11,449 bases of DNA from assembly GCA_040905425.1 (NCBI GenBank), contig JBBDRO010000031.1, forward strand, positions 36,030-47,478, in the 5' to 3' direction. This DNA comes from Gemmatimonadota bacterium. GTDB taxonomy: Bacteria > Gemmatimonadota > Gemmatimonadetes > Longimicrobiales > RSA9. The notes under the pieces are model-generated. The model searched no databases. It worked only from the letters and a program-made list of their open reading frames with translations, and was not told the DNA's origin. A program made the translations under genes and the position numbers. Shown here one piece after another: positions 2,162 through 9,488 of this stretch. Each line of letters starts with the position of its first letter. Positions within the stretch are counted from its first letter, which is position 1.

Positions 2162-2188
2162 GGAACCATTCGAGCGTGGATCCTGTTG
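2162..2188 (+). promoter_or_regulatory. ECF (SigR/SigH-type) promoter, probable autoregulatory promoter of the sigma gene
   Basis: GGAAC(2162-2166)-N18-GTTG(2185-2188) in the intergenic region upstream of the sigma gene; matches the SigR/SigH consensus GGAAY-N18-GTT. Confidence 0.8.
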
Positions 2189-2301
2189 GAGCCGTGATAC
2201 GAGGCCCGCAGCCCGCGCACCGAAGATATCGTTCGCAAGATGCAGCCCGCGCTACGATCGCTGAGAAACGCCGCCACGGCACCACCGAGGGGAAACGGCC
2301 C

Positions 2302-2994
2302 ATGAGCCGCGACGCCATGTGGGACATGGTGCGTATGGCGTGGACGATGCTGTCCGGGAGGACCGACCGGGACGTGCGGCCCGGACGCCCCCGGGAGCCC
2401 CGCCCGCAGCCGGAGCCCGAGGAACGCGCCATCGCGGCCGAGGGGTTCGCCGAGGAGGCGCTGCCGTGGCTGGACGCGGTCTACCGCTTCTCCTTGCGGT
2501 TGACCCGGGGGGACCAGGACGCCGCCGAGGACCTGGTGCAGGACACCTTCCTGCGCGCGCACAGGTTCTGGCACACCTACCAGCGGGGCACGAACGCCAA
2601 GTCCTGGCTCTTCACGATCTGCCGGAACACGTACCTCCACCAGAAGGAGCTGGTGCGCAACCAGCGCGAGCGGCCCGAGGCGGACCTGGGCGCCCGCGTG
2701 GAGGCCCTTTCGGCGGCATCCGTGTTCGACACCGGGTCGGCAGACCCGGAGCAGGCATTCTTCGGCGCGCTCATCGATGACCGGGTGGTGGAGGCCATCG
2801 ACGCACTGCCCGAGGAGTTCCACGAAGTCCTCGTACTGAGCGATCTGGGTGACCTCAAGTACGGCGAGATCGCGCAGGTACTGGACATCCCGGTGGGCAC
2901 GGTCAAGAGCCGGCTGTTCCGGGCAAGGAAACTACTGCAGGACCGGCTGCGCGAGTTCGCTGTCGACTCCGGCTATGTGCAGGAGACCACGTGA
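2302..2994 (+). CDS. ECF sigma-70 factor, SigR/SigH-like
   Basis: Region 2 (AEDLVQDTFLRAHRFW..GTNAKSWLFTICRNTY) and region 4 (LPEEFHEVLVLSDLGDLKYGEIAQVLDIPVGTVKSRLFRAR). GAGGGG SD before ATG2302. The frame is open upstream to GTG2194/GTG2176. Confidence 0.93.
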   Translation: MSRDAMWDMVRMAWTMLSGRTDRDVRPGRPREPRPQPEPEERAIAAEGFAEEALPWLDAVYRFSLRLTRGDQDAAEDLVQDTFLRAHRFWHTYQRGTNAKSWLFTICRNTYLHQKELVRNQRERPEADLGARVEALSAASVFDTGSADPEQAFFGALIDDRVVEAIDALPEEFHEVLVLSDLGDLKYGEIAQVLDIPVGTVKSRLFRARKLLQDRLREFAVDSGYVQETT

Positions 2995-3263
2995 TGATGG
3001 AGTCCACGGGCATGATCCGCTGCGAGGAAGCGCTTGCGCGCCTCTGGGAATTTTTGGATGGTGAGCTGCCGCCGCCCGACGAGGCCATGGTGAAGAAGCA
3101 CCTGGACATCTGCAACCGCTGCTACCCGCAGTATGATTTCCAGCGCGCCTACTTCGAGTACACGAGCCGTATGCGGGAGCGGGAGCACGCACCGCCGGCG
3201 CTCCGGCAACGCCTCTTCGAGATGATCCTGGAGCAGGAGGCGAACAACGGGAAGGCATCGTGA
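2994..3263 (+). CDS. Zinc-binding anti-sigma factor (zf-HC2, RsrA/RshA-like)
   Basis: CEEALARLWEFLDGEL...HLDICNRC (HxxxCxxC ZAS motif). Overlaps the sigma stop (GTGATGATG) with AGGAG SD; start could be 2991, 2994 or 2997. Confidence 0.92.
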   Translation: MMESTGMIRCEEALARLWEFLDGELPPPDEAMVKKHLDICNRCYPQYDFQRAYFEYTSRMREREHAPPALRQRLFEMILEQEANNGKAS

Positions 3264-3282
3264 TGCGCCAGGCCCGGCGCCC

Positions 3283-3560
3283 GCCTGGATCGACACTATC
3301 GACCCCGCGGACGCGGAGGGGACCCTGGCCGAAGTGTATGCCAGGATCGGCGGCCGCTCGGGCGCGGTAGCCCACATCCTCGGGTGCCAGTCCCTGCATC
3401 CGGAGGGGCTGCGCTCCGTCTGGTCACGCGGGACGAACAGCTCGTCCGGGCGCTCGCCGAGGACTGGCGCGCGGCGGGTCTCGACGAGCGGCTCCGGGCC
3501 ATCCTCGGCTTCGCGGAAAAACTCACGCTCGAGCACCGGAATGTCCGGCGGGAGGATCAT
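3283..3560 (+). pseudogene. AhpD/carboxymuconolactone-decarboxylase-like peroxidase pseudogene (internal deletion, frameshift, truncated 3' end)
   Basis: Frame +1 from 3283 reads AWIDTIDPADAEGTLAEVYARIGGRSGAVAHILGCQSLHPEGL (family N-terminus). Frame +3 from about 3405 reads GAALRLVTRDEQLVRALAEDWRAAGLDERLRAILGFAEKLT (family C-terminal half). The intervening helix/CxxC segment is absent, and there is no in-frame start before AWIDT. Confidence 0.78.
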
Positions 3561-3565
3561 GATCT

Positions 3566-3592
3566 GGAACCATTGCGTGCCGTTCCCGGTTG
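3566..3592 (+). promoter_or_regulatory. ECF (SigR/SigH-type) promoter upstream of the DsrE-family gene
   Basis: GGAAC(3566-3570)-N18-GTTG(3589-3592); shares GGAACCATT with the site at 2162. Confidence 0.72.
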
Positions 3593-3634
3593 GCCGCTCG
3601 ACACAGAGTCAGCCAATCAACAACGGAGCATGGA

Positions 3635-3991
3635 ATGGCCAAGATTTCAGTCGTGGTGCTGGCAGGCACCGAGTCACACGGGGACCTCGCGCGGGTGCTG
3701 AACGCCCTCGAGCTGGTGAAGGAGGCCGTTGGGGCGGGAGACCAGACGGAACTCGTATTCGACGGCGCCGGCGTGCAGTGGATCCCCGAATTGAGTGATC
3801 CGGACCACAAGCTGCATGGGGTCTTCGAAGAGGTCCGCGGCTTCGTGGCCGGCGCCTGTGAATTCTGCGCGAGCGCTTTCGACGTCAAGGACCAGGTTCG
3901 GGAGGCCGATGTCTCGCTGCTCAGCGAGTTCGAAGGCCATCCGAGTCTCCGGCAACGCATCGCGGATGGTTTCCAGGTCGTGACCTTCTGA
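3635..3991 (+). CDS. DsrE/DsrF-like family protein (putative sulfur relay/redox)
   Basis: GGAG SD at 3625-3628 before ATG3635. MAKISVVVLA...NALELVKE...ELVFDGAGVQW...GACEFCASAF...GFQVVTF has the length and motifs of the DsrE family, with a CxxC. Confidence 0.85.
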   Translation: MAKISVVVLAGTESHGDLARVLNALELVKEAVGAGDQTELVFDGAGVQWIPELSDPDHKLHGVFEEVRGFVAGACEFCASAFDVKDQVREADVSLLSEFEGHPSLRQRIADGFQVVTF

Positions 3992-4012
3992 ACCTGCTCC
4001 TGCCACCGCTTC

Positions 4013-4053
4013 GAGCCGGCGCACCAGGGGGTGCGCCCCCGGCTCTCTCTTTT
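4013..4053 (+). terminator. Intrinsic terminator after the DsrE-like gene
   Basis: GAGCCGGCGCACC..GGTGCG-ccc-CCGGCTC stem with one bulge, followed by TCTCTTTT. Confidence 0.72.
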
Positions 4054-4071
4054 CCGTCGCGCCTCGTCCCC

Positions 4072-4098
4072 GGAACCGTGGCACCGCCCATCCGGTTA
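4072..4098 (+). promoter_or_regulatory. ECF (SigR/SigH-type) promoter upstream of the cytochrome P460-family gene
   Basis: GGAAC(4072-4076)-N18-GTTA(4095-4098), just downstream of a terminator and 40 bp before ATG4139. Confidence 0.78.
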
Positions 4099-4138
4099 GA
4101 ACCCCGAGATGACGGTCCCCCCATGAACGGAGGCTTGT

Positions 4139-4702
4139 ATGAAGCCCGCTCTTCGAGTAGCAGGAAGCGTCCTGACTGCGGTGTTGTTCACGGCCTGCGC
4201 TGACACCGGCCAGGAGGCTGGAGAGGCGGATCAGCTGCCCCCGGCGAACGCGGACGCATCTGCCGCCCAGGCAGCCAACCAGCAGGACACCGGTCCGGAC
4301 ACTACGGCAGCCGCGCTCTGGGCATTCCTGGAAGAGGAGGCTTATCGTGACAACTGGCAGCTTTGGCCGGGCAAGGATCGGCTGTACACGGGGACGGAGC
4401 CGCACGGCATGCTCCTTACGACCTATGCGAACCGCACTGCCTACGATGCGCTGATGGCGGGACAGGTAGCAGATCTGCCGGCGGGATCCATCATCGTGAA
4501 GGAGAACTGGATGCCCGACTCTACCTACGACGCGGCAACCGTCATGTACAAGGTCGATGGCTACAACCCCGACCATCAGGACTGGCTGTTCGCGAAGTAC
4601 AATACCGAGGGCGCTCCGGACGCGTTCGGCCGGGCACCCATGTGTCAGGCGTGCCACGAGAGTGCCGAAAGTGGCTACATTTACACGGCCGTCCAGCGGT
4701 AA
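4139..4702 (+). CDS. Cytochrome P460-family c-type cytochrome, lipoprotein
   Basis: GGAGG SD, lipobox FTA-C, motifs [31 protein letters not shown] and a C-terminal heme motif CQACH. Confidence 0.85.
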
Positions 4703-4737
4703 TGCAAGAGGTGGCGGTAGCCCGCGCGCCCTGAGCC

Positions 4738-5091
4738 ATGGCCTTCCGGCTCCGGATCGACGCGGCCGGGTTGTCCTACCGGCTGATCGAATGGTGGACG
4801 AACCTGCGCAGCCGCCTCCTGACGCTGCCCTACGGAGATCAGGGCCTCGTCGTGCGCAGGGAGGATTACGTCAGGGCAGAGGGCTACCTGCCGTTGCCGC
4901 TCATGGAAGACGTGGTGCTAGTGCGAGCGCTTCGCAGAATCACCCACGTGCACCTGCTGGACGCGGCGGTCCGGGTTTCAGCCCGGCGGTGGCAGGCGGA
5001 TGGGCCACTGCGACGGATGCTGAAGAACTGGATGACCGCGGCCCGGCACATGTTGCTGCAACAACTGCCGATCGACGGAGGCGACTTGTGA
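4738..5091 (+). pseudogene. C-terminal fragment of a family-2 glycosyltransferase (TIGR04283-like)
   Basis: [56 protein letters not shown] matches the C-terminal half of this family. The N-terminal nucleotide-binding half with the DxD motif is missing, and an in-frame TGA lies at 4732. Confidence 0.75.
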
Positions 5092-6329
5092 GAAACGAGA
5101 GGATCACCTTCCCCGGTGCCCAGGGCGCCGAGCTCAGCGCGCGCCTGAGCCTTCCCGTGGACGGGGAAGTCCGGGCATGCGCGCTGTTCGCCCACTGCTT
5201 CACGTGCTCCAAGGACCTGAAGCCGGTTGTGAACATCAGCCGCGCCCTTACGCAGCAGCACATCGCCGCCATGCGATTTGACTTTACCGGGCTCGGCGAG
5301 AGCGAAGGTGACTTCACGGATACGACGTTCACCTCCAACGTAGAGGACCTGCTCGCGGCCGCCGCGTTTATGCAGGGCCAGTACGACGCGCCGGCCATCC
5401 TCATCGGGCACTCCCTGGGAGGAGCGGCGGTGCTGCAGGCGGCGGCACGGATCCCATCGGTGCGCGCGGTGGCCACGATCGGTGCCCCGTTCGATCCCGC
5501 CCACGTGAAGGACCTGTTCGTCGGCTCGCTCGACGCCATCGAGGAGCAGGGCCAGGCGGAGGTCTCCGTGGGTGGGCGCCGATTCACGCTGAGCCACGAG
5601 TTCGTACGGGACCTCGAAGGCCGGAACATGGAGAAGGTTGTCGGCTCGCTCGGCAGGCCGCTGCTCATCTTCCACTCGCCCGTGGATGACACGGTGGGGA
5701 TCGACAACGCGGCCCTCATCTATAAGGCGGCCCGGCATCCCAAGAGCTTCGTCTCACTGGATGACGCCGACCACTTGCTGCTCCGGGAGCGGGATTCCCG
5801 CTACGTCGGTTCCGTGCTGGCGGCCTGGGCCGATCGCTATCTGGCGGAGGCCCCCGAACCGCAGACCGTGGACGAGCTCCGGCAGGACAACCGCGTTGCC
5901 GTGCGGACCGCCGCTGGCGCTTTCCGCACCGAGATTCTCGCCCGGGGCCATGCCATCGTGGCCGACGAGCCCACGGCCGTGGGGGGTGAGGACCTGGGTC
6001 CCACGCCCTACGACCTGCTGGCGGCCGCGCTGGGCGCCTGCACCACGATGACGCTTCGCATGTATGCTGAACGGAAGAAGTGGCCGCTGGAGGAAGCCGT
6101 CGTCCGGTTGAAGCACACGAAGGTCCATGCCGAGGACGAAGAGCGGTGCGAATCCGGCGAAGCGCGGCTGGACGAGCTGGATCGCGAACTCACGCTCGCC
6201 GGACCCCTCGACGAAGGGCAGCGGGCCCGCCTGTTGGAGATCGCCGATCGCTGCCCGGTGCACCGAACCCTCAGCGCGGGGGTACGCGTCGAGACGGAGT
6301 TACGGCCCGCACCCGCCACCACCGATTAG
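5088..6329 (+). CDS. Bifunctional alpha/beta-hydrolase + OsmC-family protein
   Basis: GGAGG SD, GTG5088 overlapping the upstream stop. Hydrolase motifs [41 protein letters not shown]. OsmC domain with ADEP..GG.D.GP.PYDLL, LGACT and RCPVHRTL. Confidence 0.93.
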
Positions 6330-6361
6330 GAACGGCGGGGAGGGATGGCCTCACCCGTTCC
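6329..6361. terminator. Stem-loop between convergent genes (possible bidirectional terminator)
   Basis: GGAACGG...GAGG / CCTC...CCGTTCC imperfect inverted repeat right after the OsmC-fusion stop; no U-tract. Confidence 0.5.
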
Positions 6362-6404
6362 CTCAGCGCCGCCGCGGCGGCTTCCGCGGTAGAACGCTCG
6401 GACA

Positions 6405-7154
6405 CTACCGGTACTCGGGGTTCGGATGGTCGAAGCGGCATCCGGCGTCCCAGGCCGATCGCTGATTGCCGTGCGCCGGGAGGCCGCCGTGGTCCTTCAG
6501 CATCCGGGCCAGGTGCAGGAGGTTCCACGTCATAAAGGTGGTGTTGCGATTCGTGAAGTCGTTCTCAGGGCCTCCCGAGCCCGCGTCCAGGTAGGACGGT
6601 CCGGGTCCCGCCTCACCGACCCACCCGGCATCGGCCTGCGGCGGGATCGTATAGCCCAGGTGCTGGAGCGAGTACAGGATGTTCATGGCGCAGTGCTTGA
6701 TGCCATCCTCGTTGCCCGTCACCAGGCACCCCCCGACCCGGCCGTAGTAGGCGTACTGGCCGTGTTCGTTGAGCTCGGCTGAGGAGCCGTACAGGCGCTC
6801 CACCACCTGCGTGCACACCGATGACTTCTCGCCGAGCCAGATCGGCGTGGTCAGCACCAGGATGTCCGCCGCCATCACCTTCTCCTGGATGGGCGGCCAG
6901 TCGTCGCGCCCCCACCCGTGCGCCGTCATGTCGGGATAGACGCCGTGGGCCATCCGATGGTCCACCGGCCGGATCACCTCCACCGCCACGCCGTTTCTCT
7001 CGAGGATGGCGCGCGAGACGGCAATCAGGCCTTCCGTATGCGACAGCTCCGGCGACGGCTTCAACGTGCAGTTCAGGAAGAGCGCCCGCAGGTCGGAGAA
7101 GTCCCAGTCATGCGATTGGCAGTCTTCGATTTGACGATCGGTCAGGTTGGTCAC
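6405..7154 (-). CDS. Flavodoxin-like NAD(P)H-dependent FMN oxidoreductase
   Basis: LFLNCTLKPSPELSHTEGL, ADILVLTTPIWLG, GNEDG and NRNTTFMTWNL motifs. GTG7154 chosen because the longer ORF overlaps the upstream gene. Confidence 0.87.
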   Translation of the reverse strand: MTNLTDRQIEDCQSHDWDFSDLRALFLNCTLKPSPELSHTEGLIAVSRAILERNGVAVEVIRPVDHRMAHGVYPDMTAHGWGRDDWPPIQEKVMAADILVLTTPIWLGEKSSVCTQVVERLYGSSAELNEHGQYAYYGRVGGCLVTGNEDGIKHCAMNILYSLQHLGYTIPPQADAGWVGEAGPGPSYLDAGSGGPENDFTNRNTTFMTWNLLHLARMLKDHGGLPAHGNQRSAWDAGCRFDHPNPEYR

Positions 7155-7182
7155 GTGCGTCCGTTCGCGGTTGATGTGAAGG

Positions 7183-7635
7183 TCAGTCCAGCGCGGCGGC
7201 CGCGTGGCTACTGGATGCACCGCTCCGCGCAAGCACCGGCCCGTAGATCCCGCCGACCACGCCCCCGTAGATGAGGTGGCCGATGAGGCTGCCCATGGCC
7301 AACGCGGCGGATCCCGAGAAGACCGGCAGGCCCATCATCGGCATCATCACGATCTGCGCCACGAGAAAGGGCGCGATGCCGTAGAGCGCCCCGCGCATAG
7401 CCGGGGGGCCAGGCAGCCATGGCGCCACCACGGCGTAGATCAACGCCAGGATCATACCGATCATCAGGTGGCCCACCCACCCCAGGAGGAGAGCACCACC
7501 CATCTGCCCGGCCAGCATCTCCGCCGGGTTCATGGAGGGAATGCCCATCATGGGGGCCACCCAGAGACCGACGGCGGTCATGACCAGCGTGCCGACGAGC
7601 CCCGCTATGCCAGCCCTGCCGAATTTGATGTTCAC
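7183..7635 (-). CDS. Met/Gly-rich four-TM membrane protein (DUF6789/DUF1440-like)
   Basis: GGGAGAG SD before GTG7635. Four hydrophobic helices, with intramembrane His in GWVGHLMIG and SLIGHLIYG and a VMMPMMG motif. Confidence 0.8.
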   Translation of the reverse strand: MNIKFGRAGIAGLVGTLVMTAVGLWVAPMMGIPSMNPAEMLAGQMGGALLLGWVGHLMIGMILALIYAVVAPWLPGPPAMRGALYGIAPFLVAQIVMMPMMGLPVFSGSAALAMGSLIGHLIYGGVVGGIYGPVLARSGASSSHAAAALD

Positions 7636-7709
7636 GTTTTCTCTCCCGTGGTCGAGTCAGCGCTTGCGCGGTCCCCGAACGGGGCCGGCCGCTCGTTCGT
7701 TCGGGAATC

Positions 7710-7736
7710 GAACCGGACCCGGCGGCTGAGGGTTCC
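7710..7736 (-). promoter_or_regulatory. ECF (SigR/SigH-type) promoter upstream of the membrane protein/flavodoxin operon
   Basis: Minus strand GGAACCCTCAGCCGCCGGGTCCGGTTC = GGAAC(7736-7732)-N18-GTT(7713-7711), downstream of the fasciclin terminator. Confidence 0.78.
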
Positions 7737-7784: not shown

Positions 7785-7833
7785 GGGGAGAAAGGAGCGG
7801 GGGGAGGCCACCAAAGGCGCCTCCCCCCGCTCC
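7785..7833 (-). terminator. Intrinsic terminator of the fasciclin gene
   Basis: Perfect 15-bp stem GGAGCGGGGGGAGGC(7794-7808)/GCCTCCCCCCGCTCC(7819-7833), 10-nt loop, followed on the minus strand by TTTCT. Confidence 0.82.
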
Positions 7834-7875: not shown

Positions 7876-8424
7876 TCAGCGCCGCACGGCCGCCGTCGCC
7901 TCCCGGGGAAGCATGACCGCGTCGATGACGTGGATGACCCCGTTGGAGGCATCCACGTCGGCCTGCACGACGGTGGCGCCGTTCACCATCACCTTGCCAT
8001 CCACAACCCGGACGTCGAGCACCTGGCCCTGGGCCGTCGTGGGTGTGGCGCTGCCAGCCCGCAGCACGTCGGCGGCACCGATCCGGCCGGGCACTACGTG
8101 ATACTTCAGGATCTCGGCCAGGCGCGCAGGGTCCTGGAGCAGCGCCTCGACCGTGCCCTCGGGCAGCTTCGCGAACGCGGCATCGGTGGGAGCGAAGACG
8201 GTGAACGGGCCCTTGCTTTGCAGCGTGGCGACCAGGCCCGCGGCCTTCGCGGCGGCCAGGAGCGTCTGGAAGCTACCGGCGTCAACGGCGACGCCTACGA
8301 TGTCCTTCGTGGTGTGATTCTGCATGGTGTGGTCCCCGGTGGAATGGTTCTGCGCCCACGCGGTCGTGGGCGTCATGAGGGCGAGCGTCAGCAACACGGT
8401 CGCCGGAACGGTGGAGCGTGTCAT
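7876..8424 (-). CDS. Secreted single-domain fasciclin (FAS1) protein
   Basis: AGGAGA SD before ATG8424. Signal peptide ending AWA-Q. FAS1 motifs [20 protein letters not shown] and [13 protein letters not shown]. Confidence 0.93.
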
Positions 8425-8445
8425 GGCAGTTCTCCTGGTCAATGT

Positions 8446-8521
8446 TGTCCATATCATGTCCAGGACAATACCATGCCCACTTCCCGGTGTCGAGGGCCTT
8501 GTCCTGGACAGCACGTTGACA
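8446..8521. promoter_or_regulatory. Pair of inverted CarH/LitR-type operators
   Basis: Minus strand TTGTCCTGGACA-TGATA-TGGACA (8468-8446) and plus strand TTGTCCTGGACA-GCACG-TTGACA (8499-8521); TnnACA cores 11 bp apart in each. Confidence 0.78.
8465..8493 (-). promoter_or_regulatory. sigma70-type promoter of the fasciclin gene
   Basis: Minus strand TCGACA(8493-8488)-N17-TATTGT(8470-8465) with extended -10 TGn. Confidence 0.65.
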
Positions 8522-8544
8522 GCCCCGTGGGCGACCGGTAGGAT
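8516..8544 (+). promoter_or_regulatory. sigma70-type promoter of the carH-like gene (probably leaderless)
   Basis: TTGACA(8516-8521)-N17-TAGGAT(8539-8544), with ATG8550 only 5 nt downstream. Confidence 0.75.
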
Positions 8545-8549
8545 GGAGC

Positions 8550-9488
8550 ATGGACACCGCAAACGAGGACGCTATCCACCCCATCGGCGTGGCGGCGGCA
8601 CGAGCGGGGATCAGCCCCGATCTCGTCCGCGCCTGGGAGCGCCGATACCGGGTGGTCGAGCCCGGGCGAGACGATGCCGGTCGACGGGTCTACACGTCCG
8701 CCGACATCGCCCGGCTCCGCATGCTCGCCCGGGCCACCGATGGAGGCCGCTCCATCGGACAGGTGGCGGAATTGGCGCCGCGCGCCCTGGCCGAGCTCAT
8801 CCGGGAGGACGACGCGGCCCGGCGGGCCGACGCGCCTTCCACGGTGGTCCCCGAGGGTACGGCCCGGGTCGTGGAGGCGGCGCTCGAACATGGACGGAGG
8901 CTGGACGCTCCGGCGTTGGAGGCGCTACTGCTCCGTTCGTCAGCGGTGCACGGCGTACCGCTCCTGCTGCGGGGCGTACTCGTTCCCCTGTTCCGGGAAG
9001 TGGGCGAGCTGTGGCACCAGGGCCTCCTGACCCCGCCCCAGGAGCACCTCGTCACCGCCACGGTGAGAGGGGTGCTGGCCCGGGTGCTGGGCGGCATACC
9101 CGCGGCCGACGACGCGCCCAGGCTCATGGTGGCCACCACCGCCGGGGAGCGGCACGAGATCGGTGCGCTCCTTGCCGCGGCGGCCGCCACCGTGGAGGGC
9201 TGGAGTGTGACCTATCTGGGCGCTGACCTGCCGGCGGCGGACATTGCCGTGGCCGCCCGGGAGGTGCGGGCCCGGGCGGTAGCGGTGAGCGCTGTCTACG
9301 CCCCGAGCCTGGAGGCGCTGGTCATGGAACTGGAGACGCTTCGGGACGCCCTCCCCGATGACGTGACCCTCCTGGTGGGAGGGGCCGCGGGGGCCAGCGC
9401 ATGCCAGCGCCTGGGGAACCAGGGCATCCGGGCTCCGGGAGACCTGGACGGGCTCCAGGGGCACCTGCGGGCGCTGGTCCGACGATGA
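8550..9488 (+). CDS. carH: CarH/LitR-family MerR regulator with B12-binding domain (putative adenosylcobalamin photoreceptor)
   Basis: MerR HTH with RAWERRY and wing RRVY. W-x9-EH motif ([12 protein letters not shown]), ExHxxG (GERHEIG), [12 protein letters not shown] and the VGG Rossmann end. Confidence 0.88.

Follow-up and report, generated by a model that had tools for sequence, protein, structure and literature searches.

A putative SigR-like redox regulon with envelope-centred targets in an accessory island of a Gemmatimonadota bacterium

We analyzed a stretch of 11,449 nucleotides (nt), hereafter the window, from an uncultured sediment bacterium of the phylum Gemmatimonadota (GenBank assembly GCA_040905425.1, contig JBBDRO010000031.1, positions 36,030 to 47,478 of the forward strand), whose genome measures 4.12 Mb with 70% guanine plus cytosine (G+C). 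The window carries the genes of an extracytoplasmic function (ECF) sigma factor and of a zinc-binding anti-sigma factor, together with four copies of a promoter-like motif (Table 1). We propose, with a probability of roughly 60%, that thiol-reactive oxidants free the sigma factor from the zinc anti-sigma factor, and that the released sigma factor raises its own expression and that of a set of redox genes centred on the envelope. What we observe directly is the four motif copies, their recurrence ahead of orthologous genes in related genomes, the identity of the genes and the deletions in the locus. The four sites are very probably promoters of the window's sigma factor.

The original prediction had placed four sites of the form GGAACC-N14-CC(G/T)GTT at the head of the local transcription units. 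All four stand at the claimed places and on the claimed strands with no mismatch, and a search allowing one mismatch added nothing to these four matches in the window. Dinucleotide shuffles of the window (n=200) gave a mean of 0.08 matches and a maximum of 1, in a test that favors the pattern since it was derived from the same four sites. The promoter-like orientation, 40-115 base pairs before start codons, was also borne out, the gaps between motif end and start codon being 114, 43, 41 and 75 nt. As for the alleged likeness to SigR/SigH promoters, the pattern equals GGAAC-N18-GTT, and 18 nt is the spacer of the SigH/SigR-type consensus from GGAAC to GTT (PMC7826278 supplement; PMC10012870). 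The intrinsic terminators said to lie directly before two of the sites are a mixed case: strong hairpins with short T or pyrimidine runs do lie upstream of sites 3 and 4, ending at distances of about 26 and 58 nt, respectively, but a strict terminator scan called neither.

Genome-wide, the strict motif occurs six times, against 0-3 times at nine other spacers. All six matches are intergenic and face a gene at most 250 nt away, a position for which the background is 4.3% by the rough gene calls made for this genome. The looser GGAAC-N18-GTT has 37 matches, 11 of them in promoter position, against 1-8 at other spacers. Across 24 loci with sigma homologues (292 kb, both strands), the same pattern was counted 54 times versus 5-11 at spacers 13-17 and 19-23, some of these loci being near-duplicates and near-palindromic sites being counted on both strands. 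A weight matrix trained only on 50 sites from the relatives' loci reproduced the extra C, C and G of the extended consensus (C at position 6 in 38 sites, C at 22 in 41 and G at 23 in 44). The genome scan by weight matrix, suggested along with the first reading, upheld it as well: the genome's six strict sites rank first, the four of the window scoring 22.0-25.9 bits and the seventh match 19.0. The adjective "self-contained" has to be dropped, given that two further strict sites lie on contig C32 and a likely third on contig C59, where a weaker site, mirrored in the related genome G012, precedes a cytochrome c-like gene. The regulon thereby comprises about 6-7 sites in this genome.

The motif is also found before the same genes in relatives. 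Orthologues were chosen by protein search among 73 genomes of the family, independently of the motif. It stands upstream of 11 of the 14 DUF6789 orthologues, 82-105 nt before the start, and two more have a 19-nt spacer. Nine of 20 P460 orthologues have it with N18 and 11 of 20 with N18 or N19 (two loci were dropped as too short), and it lies directly upstream of DsrE homologues in two cases out of six. By comparison, it precedes 15 of the 3,349 genes of the window's own genome. In relatives, up to ten sites are gathered within 14-kb islands, with single-contig clusters of ten, seven and five sites in G076, G062 and G073, respectively. There they head, in varying order, genes for DUF6789, P460, DsrE-like, AhpD-like, Prx-like, DUF3179 and DoxX proteins, as well as DsbA/DsbD/thioredoxin-like, YceI, disulfide-reductase, flavin mononucleotide (FMN)-reductase and hydrolase-OsmC genes.

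The sigma factor has most of the residues by which SigH reads its promoters. Its nearest solved relative is SigH (E 5e-33). According to the list of SigH residues that read GTT and GG (PMC6411747), seven contacts are identical in the window's protein (T97, N98, W102, I106, N109, S203 and R207), two are conservative (Y93, L112) and three differ (Q94, a main-chain contact, H113 and K202). SigH Met181, which favors GGAAT, is replaced by Lys202, so that the protein would fit GGAAC rather than GGAAT; in the corynebacterial SigE, a basic residue at the SigH-Met position likewise accompanies GGAAC (PMC10012870). Among the 14 ECF homologues of its own genome, only the window's sigma factor combines the T, N and W contacts.

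In a core-domain tree of 53 rows, built from a quick search, one clade of 26 rows (Shimodaira-Hasegawa approximate likelihood ratio test 99) holds 14 of the 15 upstream motifs. The motif occurs within 600 nt upstream of 14 of 25 sigma genes of this clade, the window's included, versus one of 25 outside it, after three rows with flanks too short were dropped. A conserved N-terminal extension of about 40 amino acids, beginning with an amphipathic helix, marks the clade, being present in all 26 rows (25 by pattern, one by eye) and in none of the 27 others. A longer isoform starting at the in-frame GTG at 2194 was considered and is unsupported; promoter-to-start distances in relatives vary between 62 and 251 nt. 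The expectation of a regulon outside Actinobacteria was correct: 23 of 25 loci with sigma relatives are from Gemmatimonadota, several of them from Longimicrobiales, and the other two are a differently labelled assembly and a distant proteobacterial match. A FastTree of 155 rows, picked by likeness to the sigma query and devoid of named ECF14/15/26 references, places the protein in a 143-row group (support 98) with three rows passing TIGR02947, the actinobacterial SigH equivalog, and sets the 12 other ECF factors of the genome apart. Its membership of ECF12 is likely. When sigma homologues of every kind are counted, 56 of the 73 family genomes have one; at the strict level of E 1e-72, no match was found in 250 other genomes of the phylum, only four of which belong to the same family. 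In G072, one contig (C1; loci L066 and L068) bears two sigma/anti-sigma pairs of the clade about 28 kb apart, each with part of the window's cargo.

One could wonder if the sites are read by another sigma factor, such as the paralogue encoded on contig C51, or are in part non-functional relics of a decaying island. Two island genes are indeed broken, the paralogue is 38% identical, and P460 copies elsewhere display a GGAAC element with a different -10. Nevertheless, neither the sigma and anti-sigma genes nor any of the four sites is damaged, the distribution of the motif tracks the clade of the window's sigma factor, and the paralogue lacks N98, an adjacent anti-sigma gene and an upstream motif, which makes this explanation extremely improbable. 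The variant elements lie upstream of P460 in L193, L194, L197, L199 and L204, where GGAAC is at the usual distance and the -10 differs (e.g. CGCATT). They may be promoters of the short sigma paralogues without the extension, in which Arg takes the place of the His113 found in most members of the clade.

The anti-sigma gene overlaps the sigma stop codon (position +1). Numbered from its GTG start, the zinc ligands C11, H37, C41 and C44 have the spacing and numbering of RsrA, and seven of ten further residues conserved in redox-sensitive members (list from PMC3177212) are kept. A model of the sigma/anti-sigma complex scored 0.83, the best control reaching 0.00; the runs agree in at least 80% of contacts, the predicted local distance difference test (pLDDT) of the partner is at least 83, and the mark applied is reached by 51 of 78 solved pairs and by two of 108 mismatched ones. 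This result may reflect likeness only, a textbook-like pair being modeled with its zinc riding along. The initial idea of a clustered regulon governed by a SigR/SigH-like sigma factor and an RsrA-like anti-sigma factor is supported.

The targets had also been said to differ from the classical thioredoxin/mycothiol set, and this stands. The candidate trxA was rejected: its match lies inside an opposite-strand glyoxalase-like gene and is a codon artefact, GGAAC upstream of trxA recurring from codons and GTT being present in only five of 28 loci, the own one included (two of 30 were dropped as short). No trxB or thiol-synthesis gene was recognised among the top 45 matrix matches, with no gene-by-gene test made. 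Two other candidates were discarded. The PTPS-folE operon has a strict site here, but only one of its 29 best orthologues has one (65 genomes carry the gene), and the site is lineage-specific or due to chance. The site before a primary-type sigma gene on contig C111 is a loose match outside the top 45.

Several results weigh against a redox-responsive SigR-type regulon. The signal of the strict motif lies in clustering and placement and not in abundance, the genome count being low. Neither equivalog cut-off is reached: the anti-sigma factor obtains 57.5 bits against TIGR03988 (RsrA; cut-off 62.5) and the sigma factor 125.4 bits against TIGR02947 (cut-off 251.55), its top NCBIfam matches, PRK12533 (130 bits) and TIGR02947 (125), both being below cut-off. 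The FastTree puts the Gemmatimonadota sigma factors in a 59-row subclade (support 99) apart from the rows passing TIGR02947. No motif is found within 600 nt of 11 of the 25 clade sigma genes, several of which sit inside a motif-headed operon, and nine of the 20 P460 orthologues have neither spacing. The genomes are related, so the orthologue counts are not independent, and the tally of recurring targets is biased by the many loci chosen for carrying the motif. The trxA gene is not a conserved target, and feedback through re-reduction of the anti-sigma factor is therefore not evident. In RsrA, the redox signature consists of acidic residues at 39 and 40, Leu at 45 and a charged residue at 46, as derived from actinomycetes only (PMC3177212); in the window's protein D39 fits, Y45 is hydrophobic and not Leu, and I40 and P46 do not fit, a partial pattern that recurs in the 17 anti-sigma factors compared. 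Finally, GGAAC-N18/19-GTT is also read by envelope-stress sigma factors of the SigE type (PMC10012870).

It could then be proposed that the pair is a redox-insensitive switch for envelope or general stress, similar to SigE/RsiW and freed by proteolysis, with the redox genes as one output among others. The two missing redox determinants, the consensus shared by SigH and SigE (PMC10012870) and the basic residue at the Met/Arg position of the sigma factor would all agree with it. On the other hand, the anti-sigma factor is short and soluble, its closest solved relatives are RsrA (E 1e-5) and only then RsiW (6e-4), and the top matrix matches include no chaperone or protease gene. We consider such a switch very unlikely.

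In the redox mechanism that we favor, the zinc anti-sigma factor would hold the sigma factor inactive until thiol-reactive oxidants oxidise its zinc-binding cysteines. The freed sigma factor would transcribe its own operon in a positive feedback, the units behind sites 2-4 and at least the Prx-like selenoprotein gene on contig C32. The products would remove or buffer envelope oxidants and repair thiols. Peroxidase-like proteins acting by a thiol or a selenol (the OsmC fusion, AhpD-like and Prx-like proteins) would be joined by the CxxC-bearing DsrE-like protein, an exported P460-type haem protein, a flavin reductase and a Met-rich membrane protein, and in relatives by DsbA/DsbD/TlpA-type, DoxX and DUF3179 proteins and pyridine-nucleotide disulfide reductases. 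Re-reduction of the anti-sigma factor would shut the response off. The targets are largely known redox families, several of them also known as selenoproteins (PMC13188914). The trigger is the weak step of this mechanism.

Table 1. Features of the window assigned to the sigma factor locus and its predicted targets.
Position	Strand	Feature	Basis
2162..2187	+	Promoter site 1, GGAAC-N18-GTT, predicted autoregulatory, sigma/anti-sigma operon	Motif; clade conservation
2302..2994	+	ECF sigma factor, 230 amino acids, SigH/SigR-like	Pfam Sigma70_r2/r4_2; SigH nearest solved relative
2991..3263	+	Soluble zinc-binding anti-sigma factor, 90 amino acids, GTG start 2991	zf-HC2; nearest solved relative RsrA
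~3263..3565	+	Remnant of AhpD-like (CxxU) selenoprotein gene	Alignment to intact L066 and L067 copies; TIGR01926 partial match
3566..3591	+	Promoter site 2, before DsrE-like gene	Motif; orthologous to L066 site
3635..3991	+	DsrE-like protein, 118 amino acids, CxxC at 75-78	Atlas clusters; cysteines
4013..4053	+	Hairpin and short T run, probably terminating the DsrE-like unit	Folding; strict scan does not call it
4072..4097	+	Promoter site 3, before P460-family gene	Motif; P460 orthologues
4139..4702	+	Cytochrome P460-family lipoprotein-like protein	PF16694 above cut-off; CxxCH; Lys121; Thr134
4699..5091	+	5'-truncated remnant of TIGR04283-family glycosyltransferase	Covers positions 106-209 of 221
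5088..6329	+	Alpha/beta-hydrolase-OsmC fusion, with C318 and C389 in the OsmC part; site 3 is its predicted promoter	Profile matches
6405..7154	-	Flavodoxin-like NAD(P)H-dependent FMN reductase, second gene of the unit headed by site 4	PF03358
7183..7635	-	DUF6789 (YagU-like) four-helix membrane protein, ~9% Met, His56 and His120	Pfam; model; orthologues
7711..7736 (7736-7711)	-	Promoter site 4, before DUF6789 gene	Motif; DUF6789 orthologues
7794..7833	-	Strong hairpin and short T run upstream of site 4, probably terminating the fasciclin gene	Folding; strict scan negative

Profile searches uphold the names first given to the P460 protein, the glycosyltransferase remnant, the hydrolase plus OsmC protein, the FMN reductase/flavodoxin and the membrane protein, which is DUF6789. 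The DsrE-like label is less straightforward: the three Atlas clusters closest to the protein are named after DsrE or bear it (score 0.92-0.93, PF02635 on 38-45% of members), but no Pfam match was obtained at E 0.01. Comparison with solved structures gave no meaningful match, and homologues occur in six of the 73 family genomes. The hydrolase-OsmC fusion recurs in seven of 24 genome groups compared. The order DUF6789-FMN reductase is the same in L068, and a similar reductase-like gene follows DUF6789 in L176 (by eye).

The P460 protein has Lys121 at the position of the haem cross-link, and Thr134 replaces the distal carboxylate, which cytochrome P460 needs for hydroxylamine oxidation (PMC11928373). 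Both residues are constant in the nine rows aligned (cross-link Lys 9/9; Thr at the position of 7s5o Ala109 9/9). The cross-link Lys aligns with a Met of 7s5o, by profile match and a weak local alignment, and Table 2 of PMC11928373 gives the 7s5o Met as the counterpart of Lys70. These residues predict a haem cross-link, formed with peroxide, and no hydroxylamine oxidation.

DUF6789 is the most constant target of the regulon. A confident four-helix model (pLDDT 94) gave no Foldseek match at E 0.001, the best Z of 5.8 lying within background. His56 and His120 are invariant in 45 of 45 rows, and the Met content of 12 copies is 7.3-11.3% versus a proteome mean of 1.8%, only four of 3,161 proteins of the proteome reaching 9%. 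This richness in methionine opens another hypothesis, in which the main signals of the regulon would be hypohalous acid or reactive sulfur at the envelope instead of disulfide stress in general, and DUF6789 would be a sacrificial membrane scavenger. Supporting this idea, SigF-NrsF offers an analogy by driving the Met-rich MrpX against hypochlorite (PMC4436054), many targets here are exported or membrane-bound, and a rhodanese gene lies upstream in the window. However, MrpX is soluble with 20% Met, a high Met content can have a structural role when a membrane protein is small, no motif precedes the rhodanese gene, and no MsrPQ-type repair gene was seen by eye in the islands read. Altogether, we regard this hypothesis as unlikely. 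L080 is the sole locus showing a gene that we take to be MsrB-like.

The first reading had overlooked the N-terminal extension of the sigma factor, the selenoproteins among the targets and, within the locus, an AhpD-like selenoprotein gene before site 2. Only a remnant of this gene is left: a 133-bp internal deletion takes out the active site and a second deletion takes out the 3' end. In relatives, each of the five intact copies examined shows a UGA read in frame within CxxU. Assembly errors were rejected as the origin of the deletions, since the same study yielded, from a different sample, a contig that runs across the junctions. In a relative from a different study, the stretch that measures 296 nt in the window is about 660 nt long. 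The glycosyltransferase remnant is likewise spanned without difference by a contig of another sample. Since site 2 resembles the end of an AhpD-like gene, we considered that it could be a coding accident, and discarded this possibility: it aligns with an intergenic site of L066 that follows an intact AhpD-like gene. On contig C32, the gene of a Prx-like selenoprotein (UxxC, the UGA being in frame) has a strict site ahead of it. Its Cys-form homologue in G062 also has the motif, and L100 carries Cys at the UGA position. The genome possesses selA and a selenocysteine tRNA, and both families are known as prokaryotic selenoproteins (PMC13188914). In L071 (6087-6830), the anti-sigma gene is immediately followed by a GrdB-like gene (PF07355) that lies in two frames and probably encodes a further selenoprotein of the operon. 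In L058 (1597-2676; G012) the motif precedes a Prx-like gene, which is split and contains a UGA in frame, and then TlpA-like and CcdA-like genes.

We interpret the module as an accessory island whose cargo has been shuffled and, in this strain, partly deleted. The G+C content is 66-68% in the island versus 72% in the flanks. DUF6789 occurs in 15 of the 73 family genomes and sigma homologues in many more, as given above, so that the island form is the patchy one. Among the surroundings, the ten-site island (L099; G076:C69) adjoins the start of an EF-Tu-like gene (by eye), and islands adjoin Kdp-like two-component genes in L061, L089 and L179. Ergothioneine-synthesis-like genes (by eye; PF03781 and DinB_2 in L103) lie within or beside islands in L079, L103 and L075, a group in which a catalase-peroxidase-like gene was also seen by eye within or beside some islands.

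The island could alternatively be a metal-resistance module, the thiols of the anti-sigma factor sensing metals or metalloids (Hg, Cu, As or zinc loss). Relatives' islands do contain mercuric-reductase-like enzymes, MerR/CsoR-like regulators and heavy-metal transport-like genes, and TIGR04283 bears the name of an arsenosugar glycosyltransferase. These metal genes are nevertheless patchy, the window retains only the glycosyltransferase remnant, and none of the most constant targets (DUF6789, P460, AhpD-like, DUF3179) belongs to a family for metal resistance. Moreover, thiol-reactive metals would also suit the mechanism that we favor. A dedicated metal module is in our view quite unlikely.

A bolder hypothesis, which we hold to be rather doubtful as a whole, is that a Gemmatimonadota-specific clade has turned the SigR-type switch into a portable island for envelope defence against hypohalous acid or reactive sulfur. 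DUF6789 would be a membrane oxidant sink, its two invariant histidines perhaps binding haem or a metal, the P460 protein would be a lipoprotein consuming peroxide or nitric oxide, the selenoproteins would provide reduction, and the N-terminal helix, as a degradation tag or a membrane tether, may be a second layer of control.

The window holds further genes. Directly upstream of site 1 (100-2133) lie the rhodanese (sulfurtransferase) gene, which is lipoprotein-like, and that of an exported protein with a short Pro-rich tandem repeat, neither with a motif. A CarH-like B12-binding MerR regulator (8424-9488; Pfam MerR and B12-binding, NF052513 below cut-off) is divergent to the fasciclin gene. Between the two are a sigma-70-like promoter (8516-8544) and repeated TGTCC/GGACA words, and this region is probably a separate light or B12 switch with no link to the motif. 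At the contig end (11250-11449), an open frame with CxxC has no Pfam match; it resembles what we presume to be the zinc-binding end of IS91-type transposases.

A parallel can be drawn with SigR-RsrA of Streptomyces coelicolor, SigH-RshA of mycobacteria and corynebacteria, and ECF12 in general. They have in common with the window an ECF sigma gene followed by that of a soluble zinc anti-sigma factor (C-X25-H-X3-C-X2-C), a GGAAY-N18-GTT promoter, ECF12 comprising N17 and N18 spacers, an autoregulatory site, most promoter-reading residues and redox-type targets. A soluble zinc-finger anti-sigma factor at position +1 is a feature of ECF12 (PMC7826278 supplement), SigR works in outline like the switch proposed here (PMC5472188), and its long isoform also has an N-terminal extension (PMC5472188), that of the window's clade being conserved in sequence. 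The type of switch is textbook and the surprise moderate. Differences exist nonetheless. The excerpted listing of ECF12 phyla (PMC7826278 supplement) does not include Gemmatimonadota. The window's regulon is small and clustered, whereas that of SigR/SigH exceeds 100 genes; it has no conserved trxA site, and its targets lean to envelope proteins, selenoproteins, P460 and DUF6789. The extended consensus GGAACC...CCGGTT, the Lys at the SigH Met181 position and the two missing redox determinants also set it apart.

The SigF-NrsF/MrpX/YedYZ system of Azospira suillum is likewise a small, locally clustered ECF regulon that counters oxidants and has a Met-rich target in the envelope (PMC4436054). Yet NrsF is a membrane anti-sigma factor, MrpX is periplasmic, and YedYZ is not seen in the window-type islands. 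The AhpD-like (TIGR01926, CxxU) and Prx-like (PF00578, UxxC) proteins share with known selenoproteins a UGA codon in frame at the position of the motif. In the present case they are associated with the promoter of one particular sigma factor, whereas the word "sigma" does not occur in the review PMC13188914. With the cytochrome P460/c'-beta superfamily, the window's protein shares PF16694, CxxCH and the invariant Lys at the cross-link position. It departs from it by an invariant Thr in place of the distal Glu/Asp (an inactive P460 has Ala there), by a lipoprotein-like leader, by a stress promoter and by the absence of a nitrifier context.

We found no description of this regulon in the literature searched, most subscription journals being outside its scope. 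For a phylum that is widespread and mostly uncultured, the analysis supplies a promoter consensus and a regulon that lend themselves to testing. It gives a first functional context to DUF6789, to DUF3179, to P460 proteins of non-nitrifiers and to two selenoprotein families. It also suggests that the SigR/SigH logic has been reused with a small, clustered envelope regulon.

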